DNA of 64,000 nucleotides from Thermoanaerobaculia bacterium (GTDB lineage: Bacteria > Acidobacteriota > Thermoanaerobaculia > Gp7-AA8): NCBI GenBank assembly GCA_017883205.1, contig JADGNZ010000033.1, forward strand, positions 3,595 to 67,594, written 5' to 3'. This document shows, piece after piece, positions 16,702 through 29,339 of this stretch. The position numbers and the translations under genes were made by a program. Below the pieces are notes generated by a model. The model ran no database searches. It was not told the origin of the DNA and was given only the letters and a program-made list of their open reading frames with translations. How positions within the stretch are numbered: the stretch's first letter is position 1; every line of letters begins with the position of its first letter.

Positions 16702-17715
16702 ATGGTCATTGTGATGGAAAAACACGCGTCGGACACCGACATCGAGCACGTCGTTGCAGTGCTCAGCGAGCGCGGCTTCGACGTACATCGCTCCACCGGT
16801 GCGGACCAGACCGTCCTGGGCGTCGTCGGCGATGTTGCCAGCGTCGACCCGCGCGAGTTCGGGGTGCTGCACGGCGTTCAGGAAGCGGTCCGCGTCAGCG
16901 AGCCGTACAAGCTCTCCAGCCGCTCGTTCCGGCGCGAGAAAACGATCGTCAAGGCGCGCGGCGTCTCCATCGGCGGCAGCGACGTTGTGGTCATGGCTGG
17001 CCCATGTACGATCGAGAACGAACGGCAAATGTTCGAGACGGCGCGCCGCGTGGCCCGCGCCGGAGCGCGCGTACTGCGCGGCGGTGCGTACAAGCCGCGC
17101 ACTTCGCCGTACGCGTTTCAGGGAATGGGCATCGAAGGACTGAAACTTCTGCGCGCTGCCGGCGACGAGAACAACATGGCCACGATCTCCGAGGTCATGG
17201 AGATCAGCCAGATCGAAGCGATGCTCGATTATGTGGACATCCTGCAGGTCGGCGCGCGCAACATGCAGAACTACAACCTGTTGTCGGCCCTTGGCCAGAT
17301 CCGCAAGCCGGTGCTCCTCAAGCGCGGCATGTCCGCCACGATTCAGGAATGGCTGCTGGCGTCGGAGTACATCCTCTCCGGCGGCAACTACGACGTCATC
17401 CTCTGCGAGCGCGGCATCCGCACCTTCGAGACCTACACGCGCAACACCCTCGACATCTCAGCCATCCCGGTCATCAACAAACTCTCGCACCTGCCGATCA
17501 TCGCCGACCCCTCGCACGCCGTCGGCCGCCGCGACAAAGTGATGCCCCTGGCCCGCGCCATCGTCGCCGCCGGTGCGGACGGCGTCCTGATCGAGGTCCA
17601 TCACGAGCCAGAAAAAGCCGTCTGCGACGGCCCCCAATCGCTCTACCCCGACCAGTTCGCAAGACTGATGGACGAACTGCGGATCATCGTCCCGGCAGTG
17701 GGGCGGACATTGTGA
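16702..17715 (+). CDS. aroF: DAHP synthase (class I-beta, N-terminal regulatory domain)
   Basis: MAGPCTIE, LRGGAYKPRTSPYAFQG, QVGARNMQN, LLKRG, LCERGIRTFE, DPSHA, IEVH. Confidence 0.95.
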   Translation: MVIVMEKHASDTDIEHVVAVLSERGFDVHRSTGADQTVLGVVGDVASVDPREFGVLHGVQEAVRVSEPYKLSSRSFRREKTIVKARGVSIGGSDVVVMAGPCTIENERQMFETARRVARAGARVLRGGAYKPRTSPYAFQGMGIEGLKLLRAAGDENNMATISEVMEISQIEAMLDYVDILQVGARNMQNYNLLSALGQIRKPVLLKRGMSATIQEWLLASEYILSGGNYDVILCERGIRTFETYTRNTLDISAIPVINKLSHLPIIADPSHAVGRRDKVMPLARAIVAAGADGVLIEVHHEPEKAVCDGPQSLYPDQFARLMDELRIIVPAVGRTL

Positions 17716-17848
17716 TGGGGGAGTCAGCGTAGCGCGAGCGAACGTAGCGCCGGCGGCTCGCCGGCTGGTCCGCCGCCGGCCCGGCGGCATTGCCATTCAG
17801 CGGAGGTCGAAGGATCACAGCGCCGGCTGCGCCCGCAACCCAAAATGA

Positions 17849-17876
17849 CCCGGGCGCGCCTGCGAGCGCGCCCGGG
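17849..17876 (-). terminator. GC-rich hairpin downstream of cassette A gene
   Basis: 11-bp stem cccgggcgcgc/gcgcgcccggg, followed on - by tcatttt; stem nearly identical to 29089-29118. Confidence 0.65.
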
Positions 17877-17893
17877 CCACAGACTCCTCTACT

Positions 17894-18433
17894 CTACGCT
17901 TTCGGTGCCGTGGACGTGTCGTGGGTTGGTGGCGGCGTCGCTGGAGGGGCCTGCGTCGTCTTCTTGCGGCGCGCGGCGCCTTTCAGCCGTTTGACCTCCT
18001 CGACGTGCGGCACGAGCACCGCCCTTGCCGGGTCCTTGGCGAGCTGCGACCCGATCGTGTACGCCTGCATGGCGATGAGCCCGAGCCGTTGACGGCGAAT
18101 GAGGTTTGCGCCCTCGAGGCCATTCAGGAACGCGCGCGCCTCATCGACCGCGGCGTCCCAGCGGAGCGAGTCGTCCTGCAACTGACGGACTTCGTCGAGC
18201 GGCTGCCCGATCGCCTCCGATACGTTGTCGAGCACGCCGATGACGTTGATCGATGCCTCGACGATGGTCTTCGGCTGTCTCCGGAGACGCTTTTTGAGCA
18301 GCTTGCGCTGCTCCTTCGACAACGGCGCGAGGTCGTCGATCTGCGACCCGATGGCGCGCAACTGCGCGATGACCGCTTCGGGGGCCATCCTGGCCGGATC
18401 AGGGTTTGATGGAACAGGGGTGGTATTACTCAT
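17894..18433 (-). CDS. Hypothetical alpha-helical protein, cassette A (paralog of 28533-29057)
   Basis: RBS agggag upstream; shares PEA-x4-LRA-x3-QI, IN-x-IG, RW, ANL-x-RR-x-RLG, AY and L-x-PH with the paralog; basic then Pro-rich tail. Confidence 0.8.
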   Translation of the reverse strand: MSNTTPVPSNPDPARMAPEAVIAQLRAIGSQIDDLAPLSKEQRKLLKKRLRRQPKTIVEASINVIGVLDNVSEAIGQPLDEVRQLQDDSLRWDAAVDEARAFLNGLEGANLIRRQRLGLIAMQAYTIGSQLAKDPARAVLVPHVEEVKRLKGAARRKKTTQAPPATPPPTHDTSTAPKA

Positions 18434-18695
18434 GACGTAGTCTCCCTATGCGAGCTAGGCCGGAGGTGACGTCACGACTCGTCGACAAGTGCGAGCGGCC
18501 ACCGGCTGGAAATCCCGGCCACGCGCCGATTCTTCCGGTTGATGTTTGCCCGAGGCGTGTACACACCTCGGGTGCCCGCGGCAGGAGGAGATCAACTCAA
18601 CTCCCGCGCCGGTACAGGTCTGATGTGCTTATCCAGCACGCCCGTACCGCCGACAGCCGCCAAAGCCGGAGGTCTTACGATCTTCGACTTTGTAG
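18434..18695 (-). ncRNA. Putative structured 5' leader / ncRNA of cassette A
   Basis: About 260 nt between promoter and ATG with several hairpins (ggtac..gtacc, gtgct..agcac, cccgaggtgt..acgcctcggg) and motif blocks shared with 28190-28532. Confidence 0.5.
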
Positions 18696-18700
18696 CAAAA

Positions 18701-18729
18701 GATATAAGCCGGTTGAGACGTGATGTCAA
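18701..18729 (-). promoter_or_regulatory. sigma70-type promoter of cassette A
   Basis: On - strand: TTGACA, 17 nt, TATATC, followed by ttttgctacaaa. Confidence 0.65.
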
Positions 18730-18774
18730 GGGCACTGTGGAGACAAGTGCGGGTTGTAACGCTGCCGCAGTTTG

Positions 18775-19330
18775 TGCGCGCACCTGCGCACCGAGGTGAC
18801 CGCGTTGCTGTCCTTCATGGCCACATGTGCGGCGCAAGGTGACCGCATTGCGGCCCTTCATGTCCGCACGTACGGCGCAAGGTGACCGCATTGCGGCCCT
18901 TCATGGCCGCACGTGCGGCGCAAGATGACCGCATTGCGGCCCTTCATGTCCGCACGTGAGGCGCGAGTTGACCGCATTGCGGCCCTTCGTGTCCGCACGT
19001 GCGGCGCAAGTTGACCGCATTGCTGCCCTTCATGACCGCATTGCTGCTCTTCATGTCCGCACGTGCGGCGCAAGATGACCGCATTGCGGCTCTTCATGTC
19101 CGCATGTGAGGCGCGAGTTGACCGCATTGCTCCACGCCGTGTCCGCACTGCGGCCCGAGGTGACAGCGTTGCCGTACGCCGTATCCGCACTGCGGCCCGA
19201 TGGCGCAACGCTACGCGCGCCGTTTCCGAACGTGTGCACCGGAGGCGCAACGTTGCTGCGCGCCGGGTTCCACACGTGCGCGCCGAGGGTGTAGCGCTGG
19301 CGACACTGGAATGCACAGACGTGTGTTGCC
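18775..19330. repeat. Tandem array of 43-bp units (21+22-bp palindromic half-units)
   Basis: gaccgc(a/g)ttgc recurs at 18798, 18841, 18884, 18927, 18970, 19013, 19034 (half unit), 19077, 19120; degenerates beyond about 19160. Half-units carry ccgcattgcgg and ccgcacgtgcgg dyads. Confidence 0.92.
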
Positions 19331-19414
19331 ACGTCTCGGGGTCGACGGTCTCGACGCCGTCGCCACGATGAAGTCGTGATCATGGTTCATGGATGGGATG
19401 GAGTAGGAAATCCG

Positions 19415-19894
19415 CTAGCGTCTTGTCGCCACGAGTGAAACCGTGTCGATCCCCGACCCGCAACATGGGCCGGAAGTTGGACCGGTTAGCGTTGCCCTGA
19501 TCACACCGTTCGATACGCTGCCCGTGCCGTCGAGGGTGTACATACATGCGGTGAAGCCATTCCTCAGCGAAAGGTCGATCGCCGATCCCTTCACAGTCCC
19601 TCGCACAGTCGGGAGGTCAGGATTGATATTCGCAGAGAACGCGCACCCGTTCTGCCGAAGCTCCCAGCTCGCCAGGTAAACGCCGGTGGGACAATGCCCC
19701 TCGTACACCACATCGTAGATGCCCGAAACATCGGCACAGCCGGCAGGCGGGACTACTGCACGACCCCGTCCCACGCGAGTCGCCTCGGTGGTTACCGGGT
19801 GTGCGCTTTGCGCCGATTGCATCGGAGAGGTCGGCAACTCCTGTGAGCAGCCGGCAAAGAGCAGAGCCACGACGACAACCGCGAGCGCTTTCAT
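19415..19894 (-). CDS. Hypothetical Cys-containing lipoprotein
   Basis: Lipobox LFAGC after a hydrophobic signal; beta-strand-rich mature region with 6 further Cys. Confidence 0.7.
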   Translation of the reverse strand: MKALAVVVVALLFAGCSQELPTSPMQSAQSAHPVTTEATRVGRGRAVVPPAGCADVSGIYDVVYEGHCPTGVYLASWELRQNGCAFSANINPDLPTVRGTVKGSAIDLSLRNGFTACMYTLDGTGSVSNGVIRATLTGPTSGPCCGSGIDTVSLVATRR

Positions 19895-19921
19895 ATCGAA
19901 GAGAATGATACTCGTCGTAAT

Positions 19922-20024
19922 CCGAGAGGGGTCAGGTCGAAACCGAAACTGACGACAGCTTGCATCGAGCGGAATGGTCGTAGCGAAGTGTCGTCAGTTT
20001 CGGTTTCGACCTGACCCCTCTCGG
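19922..20024. repeat. Perfect 36-bp inverted repeat with 31-nt loop
   Basis: ccgagaggggtcaggtcgaaaccgaaactgacgaca (19922-19957) / tgtcgtcagtttcggtttcgacctgacccctctcgg (19989-20024). Confidence 0.9.
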
Positions 20025-20059
20025 TTCGTGCCAATCACGCGACGTTGGGGAGGTCTTTG

Positions 20060-20992
20060 ATGCCGGATCCGCGGCTCACCGTCATGGGGAGTTTCGTTGC
20101 CGATCTCGCGTTCCGAGCGCCGCGTCTGCCCGCCTGGGGTGAGACGGTCATGGGTTCCCAGTTCCGCCTCGGACCCGGCGGGAAGGGATCGAATCAGGCC
20201 GTTGCGGCCGCGCGCCTCGGCGGAACAGTCACCTTCATCAGCAAGCTCGGGCGCGATCCGTTCGGCGAACTGGCGCGCCGTACGTACAAGGAAGAGCGCA
20301 TCGACACTCGCTTCGTTTTCGAAACGCTCGATCATCCGACAGGCGGTGCAGCCGTCATCGTCGATGATGCAACGGGGGAGAACGCGATCGTCGTCGTGCC
20401 CGGCGCCGGTTTTCACGTGACCTCCGGCGACATCGATCAGGCCCGTGACGCCATCGTCCGGTCCGCCGTCTTCATGACGCAGCTCGAGCTCTCGCTCGAC
20501 GCCGTCGAGTACGGACTGCAGGTGGCGAAGTCTCTGGGCGTTCCGACGATCCTGAATCCTGCGCCCGCGTTGTCGCTTCCCGATCGCATCTATCCGTTTT
20601 GCGACTACATCACGCCGAACGAAACGGAAGCGGCGATCCTCGCGCAACAGCCGGTGACGGATCGACGAAGCGCGGAGCGCGTGGCGGAGATTCTGCTGTC
20701 GCGCGGCGCCGGCAACGTCGTGGTCACGCTCGGCGCGCAGGGTGCTCTCGTCAAGACGGCGAAGGTGACGCAGCATGTGCCAGCCATCGATGCCGGCCCG
20801 GTCGTCGAGACCACGGGCGCAGGCGACGCCTTCAACGGCGGTTTCGCTGTCGCTCTGGCGGAAGGTCTCGACATCGTCGCTGCGACACGCTTCGGTTGTG
20901 CCGTGGCCGGAATCTCGGTCACGAGGCACGGCACGGCTACCTCGATGCCGAAGCGCTCGGAAGTCGACGCGCTGTTGAAGAGCCTCTCGTGA
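20060..20992 (+). CDS. rbsK: Ribokinase (PfkB family)
   Basis: VMGSFVADL, GPGGKGSNQAVAAARLG, LNPAPA, ITPNETEA, VVTLGAQG, ETTGAGDAFNG. Confidence 0.88.
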   Translation: MPDPRLTVMGSFVADLAFRAPRLPAWGETVMGSQFRLGPGGKGSNQAVAAARLGGTVTFISKLGRDPFGELARRTYKEERIDTRFVFETLDHPTGGAAVIVDDATGENAIVVVPGAGFHVTSGDIDQARDAIVRSAVFMTQLELSLDAVEYGLQVAKSLGVPTILNPAPALSLPDRIYPFCDYITPNETEAAILAQQPVTDRRSAERVAEILLSRGAGNVVVTLGAQGALVKTAKVTQHVPAIDAGPVVETTGAGDAFNGGFAVALAEGLDIVAATRFGCAVAGISVTRHGTATSMPKRSEVDALLKSLS

Positions 20993-21179
20993 TGCGATAT
21001 TGCTGGCCGCAACGAAGGGCGATTCCAGTCACTATGCTGGCTGGTCATTACGAGGTGGAGACGCCGAAACCGGCTGAGACGGGTCATGCCGAAAGCGAAA
21101 GTGACGGCGCCTCGCGAACCGTTTCGCTGCTCGACCTTGCACATCAATCGCGCCGTTGACCTTGGCTTTCTGTCCCAAG

Positions 21180-21605
21180 TCAGTCGCTGACAACCTCAAC
21201 GCCGAGTGCACGTGCGGTGCGCAGTGCGCATCCAATGGGGTCCTTATTCACTTCGTGTTCCCAAAAACGGATCACTGTCCACCCATCCGCCTCGAGCCTG
21301 CGGTTGTTCCGGATATCGCGCTCGTGGTTCGTTCGTCGCTTCTCGGACCAGTACTCCAAGTTGGACTTGGGTGCGCGACCGTCAGGGCAGTCTGGACATG
21401 AATGCCAGAAACACCCATCCACGAACACCGCGACTCGCTTTTTCCCGAATGTGATGTCTGGCCTGCCAGGTATCTTCGAATGGAGACGGTAACCACGCAA
21501 GCCGCTCAGCCAGAGGAGCTTCCGAAGGATGATTTCAGGCTTTGTGTTCGTCGCCCGAATCCTTGACATGTTGAACGATCGGGTAGCTCTGTCGTGGACG
21601 TCCAT
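21180..21605 (-). CDS. vsr: Very short patch repair endonuclease
   Basis: MDVHDRATRSFNMSRIRATNTKPE, PGRPDI, VFVDGCFWH, GWTVIRFWEHE. Confidence 0.93.
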   Translation of the reverse strand: MDVHDRATRSFNMSRIRATNTKPEIILRKLLWLSGLRGYRLHSKIPGRPDITFGKKRVAVFVDGCFWHSCPDCPDGRAPKSNLEYWSEKRRTNHERDIRNNRRLEADGWTVIRFWEHEVNKDPIGCALRTARALGVEVVSD

Positions 21606-21670
21606 CGGCGTGTTTTCTACGAGAAGTAGAAGGTCTTGCGCTCACGAAAGCTTCCGGTACACTGAGCTTG

Positions 21671-22675
21671 ATGCCGACGGTATTCGAAATTTGCGCGGGA
21701 GCAGGCGGACAGGCCATTGGGCTTGAAGCCGCAGGTTTCGACTGCGTCGCGGCCGTCGAGCTTGACCATCACGCTTGCGAGACGCTCCGCCTCAATAGGC
21801 CGGAGTGGAACGTGGTCGAGGAAGATGTTCGTAAGGTTGATGGCACCCGGTATCGGGGTCAGGTCGACCTGCTGGCCGGCGGCGTACCTTGTCCCCCGTT
21901 TTCTATCGCCGGGAAGCAGCTCGGCAGCGATGACGAGCGCGATCTCTTCCCCGAAGCCCTCCGGCTTGCCGCTGAGATGCAACCGCGTGCGATCATGCTC
22001 GAGAATGTTCCCGGGTTTGCGTCAGAGAAGTTCCGCGAGTATCGCCGCGGCCTCTTTGCCCGGCTCAAGCGACTTGGTTACATCGCTGACTTTAGGATTC
22101 TCAACGCATCGAGCTTCGGTGTTCCCCAACTTCGACCACGCTGCGTCGTGGTTGCGCTGAAAGCCGACGACCTCGACTACTTCCGATGGCCGGAAGCGAA
22201 TGGGCTCGTCGCTTCAAGCGTCGGCGAGGTTCTCTCTGACCTGATCGCGGCCGGCGGCTGGCGCGGCGTCACCAAGTGGATGCGCCGTGCGAATGGAATT
22301 GCTCCGACGGTCGTCGGCGGGTCGAAGAAGCACGGTGGACCCGATCTTGGGCCGACGCGAGCCCGGGCTCAGTGGGCGCAGTTAGGCGTCGACGGCCTCG
22401 GAATCTCGGACGCGGCGCCAGATCGGGATTTCCCCGTCGATGCGATGCCGAAACTCACCGTTCGCATGGTTGCGAGGATTCAGGGTTTCCCCGACTCCTG
22501 GCAGATCGCCGGTCGGAAGACGGCCGCATACCGGCAAGTGGGAAACGCCTTTCCGCCGCCGGTCGCAGAGAAGGTTGCCGAGGCGATCCGTCGCGCTTTC
22601 GAGCGCGTGTATGAAGTCCCACTCGACGGAGAGCAGATTCGTATCTTCGGTCGCAAGCGGGCAGCCACCTCCTGA
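21671..22675 (+). CDS. DNA (cytosine-5) methyltransferase, M.NaeI/M.NgoMIV-like
   Basis: ICAGAGG, GGVPCPPFS, ENVPG, PQLRPR, QVGNAFPP; TRD APTVVGGSKKHGGPDLGPTRA resembles GCCGGC-specific enzymes. Confidence 0.9.
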   Translation: MPTVFEICAGAGGQAIGLEAAGFDCVAAVELDHHACETLRLNRPEWNVVEEDVRKVDGTRYRGQVDLLAGGVPCPPFSIAGKQLGSDDERDLFPEALRLAAEMQPRAIMLENVPGFASEKFREYRRGLFARLKRLGYIADFRILNASSFGVPQLRPRCVVVALKADDLDYFRWPEANGLVASSVGEVLSDLIAAGGWRGVTKWMRRANGIAPTVVGGSKKHGGPDLGPTRARAQWAQLGVDGLGISDAAPDRDFPVDAMPKLTVRMVARIQGFPDSWQIAGRKTAAYRQVGNAFPPPVAEKVAEAIRRAFERVYEVPLDGEQIRIFGRKRAATS

Positions 22676-22776
22676 GCGCGTGGAATCTGTCCTACAAGTT
22701 CTACAGATCGTAGAGTAGGCTTCCTCAGCGATCGATGACGCCGGTTCAGTAAGCTTGGTGTCGTCGCGCGCCGGAC

Positions 22777-23637
22777 ATGCCCGGACAACACCAGAACGAC
22801 GAGATACTTCTCCTGATCTCCAACGCGCTCCTGAAGTCCGCGGGCGGGTTAACAAAACTCTCTCTGGAGGTGGGGGAGCTTCTCCGTGAATGCTTCGACG
22901 GGGTCATCAAGACTCCGAAGACGGGGCGGCGACTCTACGAGGAGCTTGAGAAGACAGAGAAGACGCACATCGGCACCTGCGTCGAGATCGAGCTCCGTCA
23001 CCGCCTGAAGCTCGCACGCGGCAAAATGCTGGACTGCGAGATCGCCGGACTTGAAGTAGACATCAAGTTCAGCGTTGGTACGTCTTGGATGATCCCTCCA
23101 GAAGCGTTTGCCAGACCATGCATCATCATCTCTGCCGACGAGAAGAATGCGCGCTGCTGCTTCGGCTTCTTCATCGCGCAGGGTGAATACCTGAGTGCGG
23201 GCAACCGCGATAAGAAGTGCAGCATCAACAAATTGGGGCGAGAGAGCATACGGTGGCTCCTGAAAGACGAACCGTACCCACCGAACTTTTGGCAGTCGGT
23301 ACCCCGAGACGTCGCAGACCAGATCGCATCCGGCCGGAGTGGGAACGATCGGATGATCACGCTCTTTCGCGAGGTAATGGACCAGCCGATCAGCCGTAAG
23401 GTGATTGAGGATGTCGCAGCGCAAAAAGATCCCACAAGGCGCGTCCGGGGCGACAAGACACGCGGAACGCGGAACCGCCTCGCGAAAGACTCGATCATTC
23501 TGCTGTGTGGCGATTGGTCCGAAGCCCAGGAGTTCATCAGCAGCGCCGGCCTGCCATCGCTAGGCAAGAGTGAGTTCATGTCCCACCGCGTGGTTGGAGA
23601 TGAAGTCGCGCTCGCCAAGAAACTCGGTTTGCTATAG
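22777..23637 (+). CDS. NaeI-family type II restriction endonuclease
   Basis: TGRRLYEELEKTEKTHIGTCVEI, VDIKFS, WMIPPEA, GNRDKK, QKDPTRRVR pattern; adjacent to C5 methylase and vsr. Confidence 0.82.
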   Translation: MPGQHQNDEILLLISNALLKSAGGLTKLSLEVGELLRECFDGVIKTPKTGRRLYEELEKTEKTHIGTCVEIELRHRLKLARGKMLDCEIAGLEVDIKFSVGTSWMIPPEAFARPCIIISADEKNARCCFGFFIAQGEYLSAGNRDKKCSINKLGRESIRWLLKDEPYPPNFWQSVPRDVADQIASGRSGNDRMITLFREVMDQPISRKVIEDVAAQKDPTRRVRGDKTRGTRNRLAKDSIILLCGDWSEAQEFISSAGLPSLGKSEFMSHRVVGDEVALAKKLGLL

Positions 23638-23824
23638 CCGCCTGGGATTGAGTTGGTGTCCTATCTGGAACCCCAACTAACGGGCGCGCGCGAGAGAGTT
23701 TTCGGTAAGTTGGTTTCCCCGATGCGACCGCAACCTTAACGTCTCGATTGGCGTCGTTCCCATCGCCAATTTCGTGACCCAGCGCACGTCCGCCCATCCT
23801 TCGCCCGCGCAGAATGAAATCCGC

Positions 23825-25969
23825 ATGAAAGCCCTCCTCCTCGCCGTCACGCTTGCCAATCCCATTCTCTTCGTGACGCAGGTGCCGGTTCCTGGCGACT
23901 TCACCACCGTTGCGTCGACGTTTGGCAACCATCTGGCCGCGGTGGCGGAGGCGCCGCGTGGGGGGGATCTTTGGATCCGGTATCCCGATGGGACGACGAA
24001 GAACCTCACGCGGGCGGCGGGGTTCGGGAACGGCGGGATGCAGTCCGCGGCGTCGATCGCCGTGCGCGAGCCGTCGGTGCACTGGAGCGGGACGAAGGCT
24101 CTCTTCAGCATGGTCATCGGGGCGCCTTCGCAGCAGTATGTCTGGGAGACCTACTACTGGCAGATTTACGAGATCACAGGACTCGGCGAGAACGAGACGC
24201 CGGTCATCCGCAAGATCCCCAATCAGCCGGCGAGCTACAACAACGTCAGTCCGTTCTATGGCACCGACGACCGCATCCTCTTTACGTCCGACCGCCCCCG
24301 CAGCGGCGAACGGCATCTCTACCCGCAGCTCGATGAGTACGAAGAGGCGCCGACCGTCACCGGACTCTGGAGCCTCGATCCCGTGGCCGGCGATCTGCGG
24401 ATGCTCGACCACACGCCGTCGGGGCTCTTCACTCCGTCGATCGACAGCTTCGGCCGTGTGATCTTCACGCGATGGGATCACCTGCAGCGCGACCAGCAGG
24501 CCGACACCGATGCGACGGAAGGTGGCTCGTATGGGACGTTCGACTACGCGGACGAATCAGCGAGCGCGGCGCGTCTCGATCAGCGCGTGGAGATCTTTCC
24601 CGAGCCGCGCAGCAGCCGGACCGATCTTCTCGCCGGCACCAACCTCGAGGGGAACAGCATCAACCACTTCTTTCCGTGGGAGATCAATGAGGATGGGACA
24701 TCCGAGGAGACGGTGAACCATGTGGGGCGCCACGAGCTCTTCGGGTACTTCAACCGGAGCATGAACGACAGCGGGCTTTCGGAGTTCAATGGCGACGTTA
24801 ATCGGGCAAACCAGAACATCGTCGACAGCCTTTTCCAGTTGCACGAGGATCCGACTCGGCCGGGCGTCTACTATGGCGTCGATGCGCCTGAGTTCCAGAC
24901 CCACGCCTCGGGACAGATCGTCCGCTTCGCCGCGGAGCCGTCGCGAACGGCGGACAACATCGCCATCACGTACATCACCCCTCGCTCGACGCGCGACGTC
25001 GCGCAGGGCACGCCGGCGGCCGACGCGTCGGGGCACTATCGCGATCCGCTGCCTCTCGCGGACGGGACGTTCCTCGCGGTGCATACGAGCGAGTTGCGCG
25101 GGGACAACAACGACGGCTCGCGCGCGGCGCCGACGTCGCGATACGCATTCCGCATCCGGACGATGACGCCTCAGGGCGGCGTCTACGTGCCCGGACAGGC
25201 TCTGACTCAGGGCATCCAGGGAAGCGTGTCGTACTTCGATCCCGACGTATTAGTGACTTGGTCGGGCGAGATGTGGGAGCTGAGTCCGGTGGAGGTGCGG
25301 GCGAGGCAGCGGCCGGCTCGGCGGACGACGCTGATCGAGGAGCCGGAAGCGAAGATCTTCCGCGAGGAGAACGTCGACCTCGCCGCGTTTCGCGCGAACC
25401 TGCAGGCGCGCAATCTCGCGCTGATCGTCAGCCGCAACGTGACCGCGCGCGATGGGGCGGACAAACAGCAACCCTACAACCTTCACGTCACCGGCAGCTC
25501 GACGCAGAAGGTGGAGGGGAGCAGCAAGCTATTCGACATCGCTCACCTCCAACTCTTCCAGGCCGACCAGCTCCGCGGCCTCGGCGGCACCGCATCGCCG
25601 CGCGACGGGCGCCGCGTACTCGCGCGCGTGATGCACGACCCCGCAGTGAAGAACGCGCCGACCTCGGGCCCGGCTGGCAGCGTGCAGATCGCCGCCGACG
25701 GATCGATCGCCGCGTTCGTCCCCGCGCATCGCGCCATGAGCTGGCAACTGACGGACGCCGCGGGAACGCCGGTCGTGCGCGAGCGCTACTGGCTGACGTT
25801 CCAGCCCGGCGAGGTCCGCGTCTGCAGCGCCTGCCACGCTGTCAACTCCCACGATCAGCTCGGCGCCTCCGCCCCGACGAATTCCCCCGAGGCGCTGCGA
25901 ACGCTGCTGCGAACGTGGAAGGCATCGCAGACGACAACGCCATCACGACGCCGATCGGCAGGGAAGTGA
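23825..25969 (+). CDS. Secreted HzsA-related beta-propeller protein with C-terminal CxxCH
   Basis: Short signal peptide; VREPSVHWSGTKALFSM, YNNVSPFY, ILFTSDRP, GRVIFTRWD; DGSIAAFVPA...WLTFQPGEVRVCSACH; tail SRRRSAGK. Confidence 0.7.
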   Translation: MKALLLAVTLANPILFVTQVPVPGDFTTVASTFGNHLAAVAEAPRGGDLWIRYPDGTTKNLTRAAGFGNGGMQSAASIAVREPSVHWSGTKALFSMVIGAPSQQYVWETYYWQIYEITGLGENETPVIRKIPNQPASYNNVSPFYGTDDRILFTSDRPRSGERHLYPQLDEYEEAPTVTGLWSLDPVAGDLRMLDHTPSGLFTPSIDSFGRVIFTRWDHLQRDQQADTDATEGGSYGTFDYADESASAARLDQRVEIFPEPRSSRTDLLAGTNLEGNSINHFFPWEINEDGTSEETVNHVGRHELFGYFNRSMNDSGLSEFNGDVNRANQNIVDSLFQLHEDPTRPGVYYGVDAPEFQTHASGQIVRFAAEPSRTADNIAITYITPRSTRDVAQGTPAADASGHYRDPLPLADGTFLAVHTSELRGDNNDGSRAAPTSRYAFRIRTMTPQGGVYVPGQALTQGIQGSVSYFDPDVLVTWSGEMWELSPVEVRARQRPARRTTLIEEPEAKIFREENVDLAAFRANLQARNLALIVSRNVTARDGADKQQPYNLHVTGSSTQKVEGSSKLFDIAHLQLFQADQLRGLGGTASPRDGRRVLARVMHDPAVKNAPTSGPAGSVQIAADGSIAAFVPAHRAMSWQLTDAAGTPVVRERYWLTFQPGEVRVCSACHAVNSHDQLGASAPTNSPEALRTLLRTWKASQTTTPSRRRSAGK

Positions 25970-26183
25970 TGTTGGGGAACTGATCGGGATCGAACCGATT
26001 ACGCTCTGAGCGCGATCTGCGCGGCTGTGGGTCAATTTGGAAAACCGATCACCACAGAGGCACAAAGGTCACAGAGACACCTCCGCGTTCTCTGCGTCTC
26101 TGTGGTTGTCCTTGCTTTGGCGACACGATTAAGCCGTTACGTATTTCGTGCCCTCGGCAGATTACAATCGGCCAGGAGCACCG

Positions 26184-27800
26184 ATGATCTCGCTCACGCG
26201 CGCAACCTTCCCCGCGATCCTGCTGTTGGTACTCGTGACCTCACCGCTCACGGCGGCGACGCGCACCTGGAGTGGCGCCGTGAGCGACCGTTGGAGCGAC
26301 CTTCAGAATTGGGATGGGAGCGGGCCCCTTGCCGGCGACGATCTGGTCTTTCCCCATCTGAGCGGGGGTGGGGGGGGCACTACGAACGACCTCCCTCCCG
26401 GAACGATGTTCCATTCGATCACGCTCAATGGCTTCGGCTACCGGTTCGGCGGAAACGGAATCGTCCTCGGCGCAGGTGGACTCATCCTCCACAACCCTTT
26501 CCTCGCCTCGCTGATCCACACCGATTTGAAGTTCGCCAGCATTACGCTCGGGGAGTCGCAGACCTGGAGCGGGCCTGCCGGTGAATACACCCACCTCGGA
26601 CCGCTGAACCTCAACGGCAAGACATTGACGATCACGAATTTCGTCCGCCCGGAATTCGACTCGATCAGCGGGACGGGCGCCATCATCGAGAATAATCCGA
26701 ATGGTCTCGTGAGCAGCGCCAGCTCGACCTATCTCGGCACGGTAACGGTCGATTCCGGCTTGTTCCAGATCAGTGGGACGGCAGGCGACGTCCAGGTCAC
26801 CGGTCACGGTTTCGGCGGCGACGACCAGGCGAATCAGGCGAACGCGACGCTCGGACTGGCCGGTGCCAACGTCGCCAATGTGACGGTGAACGGCAGCGGC
26901 GCGCTCACTCTTGATTCCTATCCGGGAACATCGTATGCCGGCAGTCTTGTCTTCGCGCCCGCGGCCGGAGATCCCGCGTGGTTCGTCCTCGCGGACGGTC
27001 CGCTTCCGGTAGCCTGCAACGTCGCCGGCAACGTGGCACTCGGCAACGCGCTGCTCGTTGTCGGTCCCCACTCCGCGTTCACGCTCATCCACAGTCAGGG
27101 TGCCGGTCCGGTCGGCGGTACGTTTCTTGGTTTGCCGGAGGGAGCGATTTTCGGTAACGGGATGTGGGCTCGCATCTCCTATACCGGTGGTGCCGGGAAT
27201 GACGTGACTCTCACGCCGGTGAGCACGGCCGTCACCGGCACCACGACGACGATTACGTCATCCGCAAATCCATCTGCGCCAGGACAGGTCGTCACGTTCA
27301 CGGCAGCCGTGACTTCGGCCTCGGGCACGCCGGCGGGCGAGGTTCGCTTCTACGACGGAGGCCTCCTTCTCGGCACGTCCGTGCTGAGCGCATCGGGTCG
27401 TGCCGCCTTGGCCACGTCGTTCGCGGCAGGATCGCACCTCGTCACGGCGGCATATCTCGGCGCGGACACCGTGGCAACCAGTCAGGCAGGCGTCCGGCAG
27501 GCCGCCTGCGACCCGCCGATCCTGACCCAACAGCCGGCATCGCAGACGATCGCTTCAGGGCAGCGGATGACGCTCATGGTTCAAACGAGCGCCACGCCAC
27601 CGTTCTCGCTCCAGTGGTACCAGGGATTGTCGGGCGACACGTCGACGCCAATCTTCGGCGCGATCTCGCAGACGTTCACGCCGCCTGCGCTGACGCGGAG
27701 CACGTCGTTCTGGGTGCAGCTCACCAGTGTCTGCGGCAACGTGCAAAGCGCCACAGCGACGATCACCGTCCAGTCGAGGCGGCGAACCGCCGGCCACTGA
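26184..27800 (+). CDS. Secreted protein: autotransporter-passenger-like repeats plus Ig-like domains
   Basis: Signal peptide, TRTWSG...WSDLQNW, ISYTGGAGNDVTL, Big_3-like (SSANPSAPGQVVTFTA), Ig (QQPASQTI...QWYQG); tail SRRRTAGH; RBS aggag. Confidence 0.75.
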   Translation: MISLTRATFPAILLLVLVTSPLTAATRTWSGAVSDRWSDLQNWDGSGPLAGDDLVFPHLSGGGGGTTNDLPPGTMFHSITLNGFGYRFGGNGIVLGAGGLILHNPFLASLIHTDLKFASITLGESQTWSGPAGEYTHLGPLNLNGKTLTITNFVRPEFDSISGTGAIIENNPNGLVSSASSTYLGTVTVDSGLFQISGTAGDVQVTGHGFGGDDQANQANATLGLAGANVANVTVNGSGALTLDSYPGTSYAGSLVFAPAAGDPAWFVLADGPLPVACNVAGNVALGNALLVVGPHSAFTLIHSQGAGPVGGTFLGLPEGAIFGNGMWARISYTGGAGNDVTLTPVSTAVTGTTTTITSSANPSAPGQVVTFTAAVTSASGTPAGEVRFYDGGLLLGTSVLSASGRAALATSFAAGSHLVTAAYLGADTVATSQAGVRQAACDPPILTQQPASQTIASGQRMTLMVQTSATPPFSLQWYQGLSGDTSTPIFGAISQTFTPPALTRSTSFWVQLTSVCGNVQSATATITVQSRRRTAGH

Positions 27801-27813
27801 TCTGCAAAGGCTT

Positions 27814-27875
27814 ATCCGCAGATTACGCAGATGAGACGCAGATAAAGAACTCTTCGATCTGCGTCATCTGCGGAT
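27814..27875. repeat. ATCCGCAGAT-type inverted repeat, copy 2
   Basis: atccgcagattacgcagat ... atctgcgtcatctgcggat. Confidence 0.75.
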
Positions 27876-27914
27876 CATGAACCTTCCTCTCGATATTCGA
27901 GTCTTCAGTCTCGA

Positions 27915-28150
27915 TATCGACAGGGCATCGTGATCGAAGGGAGCGCCTTCGATGCCAAACGGTGCGTCGCCGTTTCCAAACGGTGCGTCGCCCTTTTCAA
28001 ACGGTGTGCCGCCGTTTCCAAACGGTGCGTCGCCCTTTTCAAACGGTGCGCTGCCCTTTTCAAACGGTGCGCCGCCGTTTCCAAACGGAGTATCTCTGTT
28101 TCCAAAAAGGAGTGTCTCCAATTCGAAACGAGCGTCTCCAATATCGAAGG
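27915..28150. repeat. Tandem array of 21-bp palindromic units
   Basis: aaacgg at 27957, 27978, 27999, 28020, 28041, 28062, 28083 (exact 21-bp period) with degenerate flanking units; unit aaacggtgcgtcgcc(gtttcc|cttttc). Confidence 0.92.
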
Positions 28151-28155
28151 ACATT

Positions 28156-28185
28156 TTTACAGAAGATGATTGCTGTATCTATCTT
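28156..28185 (+). promoter_or_regulatory. Putative sigma70-type promoter of cassette B
   Basis: TTTACA, 18 nt, TATCTT, followed by gttacaaa (compare tatcttttgctacaaa in cassette A); locally AT-rich. Confidence 0.5.
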
Positions 28186-28189
28186 GTTA

Positions 28190-28532
28190 CAAATTGACCG
28201 CCTTTTTAGCCGGGGGTGCTTCGTCTAAGTATGTCGAGGACGGCAAGGTCACCCGCAAAGAGCGGATGCCCGTTGCCCTACTCGAACGAGGTACTGAGCC
28301 CGTCAAGCTTGAGCCATGGCGCGACGGACCCGGCTGCAAAGTGGGGTTGAGCGGTAGCTCCTCCAGCCTCGGAAGTATCCCCCGCAGCCGCGGACTGTGG
28401 GGGCAGGCGAGCGAACGGATTGCGACGTTTCGCTCATGACGTTCCAACCCGGGACTACGTCCGAGCTGCGCACTCAGTCCGAATGACGTCCCATAACCAA
28501 GTTGCCCTTCGGGGCAGGAAAGGAGTTTCACC
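28190..28532 (+). ncRNA. Putative structured 5' leader / ncRNA of cassette B
   Basis: About 340 nt with hairpins (cccccgcag..ctgtggggg, gagcgaac..gtttcgctc, tgcccttcggggca) and motif blocks shared with the cassette A leader. Confidence 0.5.
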
Positions 28533-29057
28533 ATGTCGAATGAGAATGCAGTCAGTCAAACAAACGCCGCTGCGGCGGCAGACGGTCAGTCCGCCACGCC
28601 GGAAGCGATCGTGGAGACGCTTCGCGCACTGCGCGAGCAGATCCCCGAGTACGTGCAGTTGGCGCCCGCGGACGCGAGGTCGAGTCAGCCTATCGCCAAT
28701 CTCCATCCGGATTTTGCCCAGGCGGCCATCAACGCCATCGGCGCATCGCCGTTGGTCCAGGCCGTCGTCGGCCAAACGCCGGAGGCATTGCAGCAGGAAG
28801 CTGAGTCGGCCGCGCGCTGGTCGAAAGTGGAGGACGAGCTGTTGGCGATGCTGAAAGGCGTCTCCTACGCGAACCTGATGCGGCGTAACCGCCTCGGCGA
28901 AGCAGCCCTGACGGCCTACGCGGTCAGCAAGAAGCTGGTGCGCTCACCGGCGCATGCTGCCCTTCTGCCGCACCTCGCGCTGATGCGGAAGGCCAATCGT
29001 CTCGGACGCAAGTCCCAGCCGACGCCCCCGGCACCGGTTTCAGCGCCCGGTGTCTGA
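28533..29057 (+). CDS. Hypothetical alpha-helical protein, cassette B (paralog of 17894-18433)
   Basis: Strong RBS aaggag; motif-level similarity to the cassette A protein along the full length. Confidence 0.82.
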   Translation: MSNENAVSQTNAAAAADGQSATPEAIVETLRALREQIPEYVQLAPADARSSQPIANLHPDFAQAAINAIGASPLVQAVVGQTPEALQQEAESAARWSKVEDELLAMLKGVSYANLMRRNRLGEAALTAYAVSKKLVRSPAHAALLPHLALMRKANRLGRKSQPTPPAPVSAPGV

Positions 29058-29088
29058 TGCAGTCATGTAGTTGCGCAGTCATGTAGCA

Positions 29089-29118
29089 GCCGGGCGCGCC
29101 GATCGCGGCGCGCCCGGC
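29089..29118 (+). terminator. GC-rich hairpin downstream of cassette B gene
   Basis: 13-bp stem gccgggcgcgccg/cggcgcgcccggc. Confidence 0.65.
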
Positions 29119-29242
29119 CCTTGCCAAGGAGTGCAGGCGTCTCGCCTGCGGCCGGCGGGCGTCCTCGCCCGGCGGTGGTTTCCGTGAAGCCCGGTTCTGT
29201 ACCTGCCCGTTCACCGCTGGCGCACACCGGAACCGAGGACTT

Positions 29243-29339
29243 GCACAGACAAGAGTGTCTGTGCCACACCAGCACCCGCACGAACAAGAGTGTCTGTGGC
29301 ACATCAGCACCCGCGCAGACGAGAGTGTCTTTGCCACAT
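29243..29339. repeat. Three tandem REP-like palindromes (35-bp period)
   Basis: gcacagacaagagtgtctgtgc consensus; gagtgtct at 29253, 29288, 29323. Confidence 0.8.

Follow-up and report, generated by a model that had tools for sequence, protein, structure and literature searches.

A previously undescribed family of structured leader RNAs, in two related classes, upstream of a helical protein family in Thermoanaerobaculia

The window analyzed here is a stretch of 64,000 nucleotides (nt) from a Thermoanaerobaculia bacterium (contig JADGNZ010000033.1, positions 3,595 to 67,594; the source genome comprises 6.37 Mb in 105 contigs). It carries two gene cassettes, A on the minus strand and B on the plus strand, each with a long leader in front of a small protein gene. 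A preliminary description, made from the letters alone, had pointed out that the two leaders share sequence blocks followed by an equivalent hairpin and had proposed a new structured RNA. The locus thus raises the question of whether such an RNA exists and, if so, what it does for the gene behind it. Judged from the sequence, the segment 18434–18700 (minus strand) is the 5′ leader of the small gene of cassette A, gene A. This leader contains a large covarying RNA domain that has no Rfam family and occurs in well over 100 copies in 21 genomes. We consider the leaders of types A and B to be two related classes of one genuine family of structured cis-regulatory RNAs that has not been described before; the structure and the association with one protein family are firm.

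A covarying five-helix domain in leader A

When leader A was used in a blastn search of the source genome, 10 other contigs were found to carry copies of it, complete or partial (6 contigs for leader B). Eight full paralogous leaders align well, and each of them folds independently into the same junction of five helices, P1 to P5 (Table 1), with energies of −84 to −97 kcal/mol for ~172 nt. In these eight leaders the closing helix P1 has the consensus GGCGGCYR.CGG with CCG.YGGCCGC, and P4 and P5 are separated by an unpaired linker, J4/5, reading AAACAUCAACC. Across the aligned A-type copies P3 takes the form GGAG-UU-GAGC-N3-4-GCUC-CUCC and is followed by a GC-rich hairpin. The minimum free energy (MFE) of the whole of leader A is −119.2 kcal/mol (z −3.0), and the minimum structure already holds most of the helices. 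Upstream of the core, at a distance of 15–24 nt, a perfect GNRA-capped hairpin of at least 4 pairs (P0) was detected in 29 of 75 copies, compared to 1.9 expected from shuffles.

A covariance model, R1, was built from the eight paralogs (177 positions, 48 pairs). R1 retrieved its own eight copies in the source genome. Of 101 related genomes searched, 21 (the source genome among them) gave matches, nearly all full-length, with a maximum of 18 in one genome. Matches were present in 20 of 60 other genomes of the same Thermoanaerobaculia family and in none of 40 genomes from 15 other families. The exact P3 pattern was found at 69 loci in a 185,579-species genome collection, with titles naming Thermoanaerobaculia (64), Acidobacteria or Acidobacteriota (4) and a Gemmatimonadaceae metagenome-assembled genome (1; locus L132, possibly a mis-binned contig); no match to this pattern was found in viral contigs. 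A loose regular expression for P3-like hairpins gave 95 matches over the whole genome, mostly unrelated, and was abandoned as too unspecific; its convincing sites belong to A- and B-type leaders only.

Covariation was assessed in an alignment, A4, of 77 matches from 76 sources (40 weaker matches were fetched, and one row is a reverse-strand artefact). Standard pairs make up 95.8% of 3451 cells, compared to 33–50% when the partners are slid by 1–3 columns. Changes on both sides were detected at 31 of 46 pairs (174 cells), and none of 500 shuffles, a control that overstates significance, reaches any of these measures; the slid controls are the fairer test. In P1, 6 of the 8 pairs of the main segment have double changes and 93.4% of cells are paired. 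Compensatory changes were found at 8 of 10 pairs of P4 (97.3% paired), at 7 of 9 pairs of P5 and at all 5 apical pairs of P2. The outer helix of P2 is misaligned by indels in A4 and was assessed by unconstrained folding instead, in which 62 of 68 distinct segments form one end-to-end hairpin with a median of 14 pairs and a mean z of −2.6. The counts for P3 use a register corrected from compensatory changes, with GGAG/CUCC contiguous and UU as a bulge. In this register GGAG/CUCC is 99.7% paired, with A-U replaced by G-C in 5 copies and G-C by A-U in 3+3. Since the supporting register differs from that of R1, the P3 changes were not fitted to the model. This result and that for the alternative helix described below are model-independent and constitute the stronger evidence.

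G-U pairs are frequent in A4 (for example, in 23, 27, 30 and 29 copies at four pairs), and R1 scores ~30 bits on the reverse strand compared to ~180 bits on the forward one. Thus, the signal points to an RNA of the leader's own strand and not to a DNA palindrome. P3, J4/5 and P1 are nearly invariant while the proteins fall to 36–45% identity; leader A and its copy on contig C3 are 89.6% identical and their proteins 63%. Multicopy cassettes, some pairs of which are ~90% identical, could also be expected if the leader were non-functional, a relic of recent gene duplication or a site acting at the DNA level. The strand specificity of the signal, together with retention of the structure through numerous G-U and compensatory changes even where the encoded proteins share only 36–50% identity, makes this explanation barely credible.

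A gene of the family lies on the same strand behind 72 of the 76 copies, its start located 55–160 nt, and its alignment beginning 53–160 nt, past the core. The remaining four (L092, L095, L097 and L098), three of them RNAs that lack large parts (P5 or the 3′ half), are probably decayed cassettes.

The organization of cassette A appears to be monocistronic: a tandem array, a promoter, the leader, a gene for a ~180-amino acid (aa) helical protein and a terminator. Similarity to the nearest paralogs extends from 18792 to 17848, i.e. from promoter to terminator, and the TTGACA and a TAnnnT-like box recur in the paralogs at equal distance. Transcription of the leader would start near 18695. The Shine-Dalgarno (SD) sequence GGGAGA is located 7 nt before the ATG of gene A. 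We take this ATG, at 18433, as the probable start because of the paralogs and of the SD at 18446–18441. The identical public cluster (P0003) has 164 aa, or 92% of the 179-aa open reading frame, and the public start seems to have been placed 15 codons late, at Met16.

Four soil or rhizosphere metatranscriptome runs, each from a separate study, yielded contigs that match leader and gene at 85–99%; this support consists of contigs only, with small shares (0.05–0.07 of words). One contig of 569 nt spans 17946–18488, bridging leader and coding sequence, and another covers 18457–18644. Fading of the coverage above ~18725 is no evidence for a start site, because loose contig ends run on into other copies. 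In one run the leader had a greater summed contig depth than the coding sequence, as would be the case for an independent small RNA, or a ribonucleoprotein scaffold or guide, that merely sits beside the gene; this depth is a poor measure because conserved leaders gather contigs from many copies. The bridging contig from an RNA library argues against an independent RNA, as does the absence of a terminator-like site between domain and gene in a terminator scan of leader A. So does the short, fixed spacing to the start codon, with an anti-SD box in between, and we consider an RNA of this kind very improbable. Structured RNAs beside a recombinase or a TnpB gene are represented by the IS110 bridge RNA and the IS605 omega RNA; here the neighbouring protein has no Pfam domain and the RNA no Rfam match. 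Of the functions initially suggested for the shared element, a guide or scaffold RNA thus found no support, while the cis position and the lack of an internal terminator favour a riboswitch or protein-binding leader.

Leader B and known RNA families

The strings quoted in the preliminary description were found in place: the A block gggagttgag...ctcctcctgccgcgg at 18605–18575 (minus strand), the B block ggggttgagcggtagctcctccagcctcgg at 28343–28372, and the hairpins that follow them at 18572–18549 (plus GGGCA) and 28379–28403 (plus CA). Their likeness exceeds chance. When a model made from A-type sequences only was run with filters off over 1.2 kb around leader B, the best match was 28343–28367 (8.2 bits, E 0.024), which is the shared block, and the module is present in A-type copies as well as in every B-type homolog collected. 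Two further shared motifs, tgacgt and ggga(ga)ctacgtc, are indeed present in both leaders of the window, and in leader A they pair with each other; they are not conserved among B-type homologs or in the second A-type subfamily.

Homologs of leader B were found via protein B. Twenty-one of them align over ~340 nt, and P3 with the following GC-rich hairpin is present in 21/21. For the central 180 nt of this alignment RNAalifold gave 32 pairs, 12 of them with compensatory changes. In this structure a UGAGGU/GCCUCA helix surrounds P3 (GGAG-UU-GAGC-GUUA-GCUC-CUCC) together with a branch hairpin that covaries, and the P4-like hairpin and further hairpins follow. The copy in the window diverges from its class in the first ~90 nt. 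An attempt to treat leaders A and B as one alignable family was given up, as global MAFFT alignment was poor with scattered identities only; leader B was also rejected as a member of R1, there being no match beyond P3. On sequence grounds, A and B are best described as two classes with a common P3-P4 module. One copy, L099, is intermediate between them.

No known family explains the leaders. A search of the whole window with Rfam 15 (4227 models) produced no match at the gathering score, and at E≤10 only unrelated weak rows appeared for 17800–29200 and for each leader alone. We found no paper linking Thermoanaerobaculia with a riboswitch or noncoding RNA. As far as the accessible parts of the literature on structured-RNA motifs of Acidobacteria go, this RNA is not described there, and the motifs reported already have Rfam models, none of which gives a match here. 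Among them, Acido-1, Acido-Lenti-1 and nadA/NAD+-I resemble leader A, again according to those parts, in phylum, in position upstream of genes and in comparative discovery; none of them matches the window. The proposal of a candidate new structured RNA was thus borne out, with strong covariation in the A-type domain and covariation also present in the B type.

The conserved leaders behave as assembly-breaking repeats. Contigs C27, C85, C29, C72, C54, C81, C43, C83, C59 and C17 end within leaders of type A or B. Four contig ends hold half of an A-type leader (the 5′ half in two cases, the 3′ half in two), with the breaks at P3/P4.

Table 1. Features of cassettes A and B, in positions of the window
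Feature	Position	Strand	Basis or remark
Array upstream of cassette A	18794..19172		TRF; 43-bp units (two ~21.5-bp half-units, CCGCA..UGCGG palindromes), ~9 copies
Putative sigma-70-type promoter, cassette A	18701..18729	-	TTGACA 18729-18724, 17 nt, TATATC 18706-18701; read by eye
P0, small hairpin with GNRA loop (GUAA)	18671..18683	-	imperfect in window copy
Core five-helix domain P1-P5, ~178 nt, leader A	18488..18665	-	match to model R1, 185.4 bits
P1 5′ strand (GGCGGCUGUCGG)	18650..18661	-	pairs with 18505-18494
P2, long hairpin, GGAUA apical loop	18610..18649	-	
P3, near-invariant hairpin GCG-GGAG-UU-GAGU..AUCU-CUCC-UGC-CGC	18577..18609	-	first shared block of the preliminary description
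P4, hairpin CCCGAGGUGU-GUAC-ACGCCUCGGG	18549..18572	-	'equivalent hairpin' of the preliminary description
J4/5, conserved unpaired linker CAAACAUCAACC	18537..18548	-	conserved in 77-row alignment
P5, GGAAG..CGGC-loop-GCCG..UUUCC	18508..18536	-	
P1 3′ strand	18494..18507	-	18506-18499 (GCCGGUGG) also proposed switching strand
Conserved CCUCCGGCCU box (anti-SD)	18457..18466	-	proposed to pair with 18506-18499 or the ribosome-binding site
SD GGGAGA (18446-18441) and start codon AUG (18433-18431), gene A	18431..18446	-	read from sequence
Gene A, 179 aa, all-helical protein, family without assignment	17894..18433	-	open reading frame and predicted fold
Terminator-like hairpin, 16 pairs, closing cassette A	17845..17880	-	terminator scan; directly after gene A
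Array upstream of cassette B	27955..28148		21-bp units, ~7-9 copies
Putative promoter, cassette B	28156..28185	+	TTTACA, 18 nt, TATCTT; read from sequence
Leader B, ~340 nt, second structured leader class	28190..28532	+	MFE -148.8 kcal/mol, z -3.57
P3 of leader B (GGGG-UU-GAGC-GGUA-GCUC-CUCC)	28343..28364	+	A-type model match, class alignment
P4-like hairpin of leader B	28379..28403	+	alignment pairs 123-126/143-146; compensatory changes at 2/4
Gene B, 174 aa, paralog of gene A	28533..29057	+	32% identity, E 3e-24

An alternative helix and a candidate translational switch

Downstream of P1, at 10–40 nt before the SD, all A-type leaders contain a box, CCUCCGGCC, that is nearly invariant in 71 leaders. 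This conserved anti-SD box and the P1 3′ strand GCCGGUGG have complementary sequences. In a plain MAFFT alignment of the 71 leaders, the helix between the P1 3′ strand and CCUCCGGC has 86.2% of cells paired, compared to 33–60% in slid controls, and 5 of its 8 pairs have double changes; none of 500 shuffles matches these values. Examples of covarying helices are GCCGAUGG/CCAUCGGC, GCUGG/CCAGC, CCGGUGA/UCACCGG and GGAAGG/CCUUCC. In the first of them the changed G faces a mismatch in P1, and therefore the second change is explained by the alternative helix alone.

When the 71 leaders were folded with either P1 or the alternative helix forced, the median difference was 0.7 kcal/mol, with P1 better in 34 leaders and the alternative helix in 37. 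The two folds are within 3 kcal/mol of each other in 27 leaders, and the differences range from −21 to +16 kcal/mol. For the copy in the window, the free-energy minimum includes the alternative helix, and with P1 forced both SD and AUG are paired; in this leader GUGACGU (18475–18469) pairs with ACGUCAU (18438–18432), covering the start codon. The anti-SD box pairs with its own downstream region at −8.74 kcal/mol and with those of other copies at −7.79 kcal/mol (0 of 2000 permutations, a result inflated by kinship). The near-isoenergy of the two folds and the covarying helix depend on few variable copies, on related sequences and on nearest-neighbour energies.

Taken together, these features suggest that leader A is probably a cis-acting translational switch built around a five-helix domain closed by P1. 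With P1 closed and the domain folded, the CCUCCGGC box would be free to pair with the SD, and translation would be off; in the window copy the GUGACGU/ACGUCAU helix would additionally mask the AUG. With P1 open, its 3′ strand GCCGGUGG would pair with CCUCCGGC, the ribosome-binding site would be free and translation would be on. Some trigger would stabilize one of the two states. Both the direction of the switch and its effector are inferences. A factor common to all copies, either a small ligand or a shared protein, would be expected, because the invariant parts of the RNA (P3, the linker and the bases of P5 and P1) are conserved far above the proteins behind them.

The very stable folds, and a free-energy minimum of the whole leader that has most helices, would fit a static structure of the 5′ untranslated region that acts on mRNA stability, fixes translation at a low level or provides ribosome standby without any switching. 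Such a structure accounts neither for the compensatory substitutions that link the anti-SD box to the P1 3′ strand, in competition with P1, nor for the strict sequence conservation of P3 and of the unpaired J4/5. We consider it unlikely.

Several observations weigh against a translational switch or weaken the case for it. In 60 of 71 copies the alternative helix contains a U-U mismatch, most of its pairs do not vary, and in 44 of 71 leaders the forced folds are more than 3 kcal/mol apart, by up to 21. Complementarity of CCUCC to an SD is automatic, and no more than about half of the 17 anti-SD boxes with a variant sequence rank well when set against the region of their own leader. A metabolite riboswitch with one uncharacterized protein family as its sole regulated gene would be unusual. 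The copies in alignment A4, itself fitted to the model, are paralogs and kin, hence the overstated shuffle counts. The metatranscriptome contigs come from relatives, carry no information on strand, ends or level, and may be derived from DNA. A consensus promoter scan of 17700–19300 listed none, the promoter of cassette A being read by eye only; it was missed because its second hexamer ends in C. Finally, no downstream anti-SD box is obvious in B-type leaders, so that we do not extend the A-type mechanism to them. In leader B, the CUCCUCC strand of P3 could pair with the SD region; both are invariant and so no covariation signal is possible.

As to the trigger of the switch that we favour, two kinds of effector were considered. 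The first is a protein: either the encoded helical protein, in an autogenous loop, or a shared RNA-binding protein would bind the P3/J4-5 core and repress translation. Copies of the RNA go with a single protein family, RNA and gene are duplicated together, and the regulated gene encodes neither an enzyme nor a transporter. P3, moreover, looks like an SD/anti-SD helix, a plausible mimic for a protein or the ribosome to bind, and we take its CUCCUCC to resemble the 3′ end of 16S rRNA. The near-invariance of P3, J4/5 and P1 against proteins at 36–45% identity argues against each product reading its own leader, and the predicted fold of the protein lacks a known RNA-binding domain (see below). A protein-bound leader is therefore a tentative proposal, possible at best. 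Ribosomal-protein leaders offer a parallel, as they are structured leaders placed directly before the gene with possible rRNA mimicry; unlike them, leader A precedes a gene for a non-ribosomal protein with no known RNA-binding fold and is far more conserved than that protein.

The second kind of effector is a small molecule or second messenger, the five-helix domain being an aptamer in which the ligand closes P1. Leader A is a conserved, covarying domain in a 5′ untranslated region, as riboswitches are. Its multi-helix junction, in which unpaired nucleotides are conserved, is closed by P1; the 3′ strand of P1 is common to the alternative helix, and copies are many, up to 18 per genome. On the other side, the copies precede one helical protein family in place of metabolic or transport genes, no ligand can be proposed, and no known riboswitch model matches. 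We regard a riboswitch as rather doubtful. The Escherichia coli thiM thiamine pyrophosphate riboswitch is similar to leader A as a P1-closed junction in a 5′ untranslated region in which the P1 3′ strand competes with an anti-SD; it differs in showing no similarity in sequence or model, whereas leader A is followed by one uncharacterized protein family and is repeated within genomes. The lysine riboswitch (RF00168) is similarly a five-helix junction of ~175 nt closed by P1; leader A, in contrast, has no Rfam match, other conserved nucleotides and no lysine-related genes. With either effector, leader A may represent a new class of riboswitch or of protein-responsive leader, from a soil lineage that has been little studied and is for the most part uncultured.

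Protein family, tandem arrays and neighbouring features

A tblastn search with protein A gave 37 matches in the source genome; in many of them a contig ends 120–330 nt upstream of the gene, i.e. the break is inside the leader. No family was found for proteins A and B in Pfam, NCBIfam, PHROGs or PADLOC, and the ESM Atlas holds only unnamed Acidobacteriota clusters for the family protein. Close homologs of the family proteins are labelled Thermoanaerobaculia (Acidobacteriota). An AlphaFold2 model of protein A, calculated with a 39-sequence alignment, is all-helical (predicted local distance difference test, pLDDT, 90) and consists of four short helices, a long helical hairpin (79–131, 135–160) and a basic Pro/Thr-rich tail. 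With this model Foldseek returned nothing from pdb at E≤0.001, and weak rows resembling sigma region 4 or a helix-turn-helix appeared at E>1; VIA-align wide gave single long-helix matches only (Z up to 6.5). The idea of a helix-turn-helix was dropped, as the N-terminal 67 residues folded alone too poorly (pLDDT 66.5, predicted template modelling score 0.30). Three members without an A-type leader (C21:5803-6285, C49:125096-125566 and C104:6500-6970) are 41–55% identical to protein A; there, 21-bp tandem repeats reach almost to the gene.

Tandem arrays were surveyed at loci L021-L059 and L100-L128. Upstream of the promoter, 26 of the 31 A-type loci and 16 of the 18 B-type loci (42 of 49 together) carry an array, compared to 0 of 31 and 1 of 19 among control segments. 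In 35 arrays the smallest period is 21–22 bp and in 7 it is 42–43 bp, corresponding to about two DNA turns per unit, and array lengths range from 59 to 431 bp. The units differ among paralogs and are kept among orthologs (cassette A and L032). Dyad symmetry was rejected as a general feature of the arrays: the mean best perfect arm was 3.45 nt versus 2.31 in shuffled units, and it is absent in 15 of 42 units.

A tandem array upstream of a gene for a protein of ~170–180 aa is reminiscent of ToxIN-like type III toxin-antitoxin loci. Here the array is located above a promoter-like site, a long non-repetitive structured leader without a terminator separates it from the gene, the protein is all-helical and PADLOC gave no match, which sets the cassette apart from these systems. 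One idea is that the arrays are phased protein-binding sites. The 37-match family, the 21–22-bp array at each locus and an RNA more conserved than the protein suggest an unrecognized regulatory module with a common signal. Speculatively, the cassette might operate at two levels, with the locus-specific array serving the helical protein, or a partner of it, as an operator platform and a riboswitch-like RNA, in two architectures around the SD/anti-SD-mimic P3, gating translation of the 20–40 paralogs per genome by one signal. If this improbable scheme were true, it would be a previously undescribed control unit, in which a new ligand-sensing RNA class coordinates an expanded protein family in soil Thermoanaerobaculia.

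Other features of the window were noted. In the gap where gene A and its plus-strand neighbour converge, at 17743–17788, there is a GC-rich element of ~45 nt that folds into GC hairpins. More than 50 copies of it, with 80–98% identity, are present on many contigs of the source genome, and it looks like a repeat of the repetitive extragenic palindrome or miniature inverted-repeat transposable element type. A restriction-modification island at 21180–23637 encodes a Vsr mismatch endonuclease (21180–21605, minus strand), a C-5 cytosine methylase (21668–22675) and a NaeI-family endonuclease (22777–23637). Between gene B and an M20 peptidase gene, a 35-bp tandem repeat of 2.8 copies with an internal palindrome (29243–29339) overlaps the listed start of the peptidase gene.

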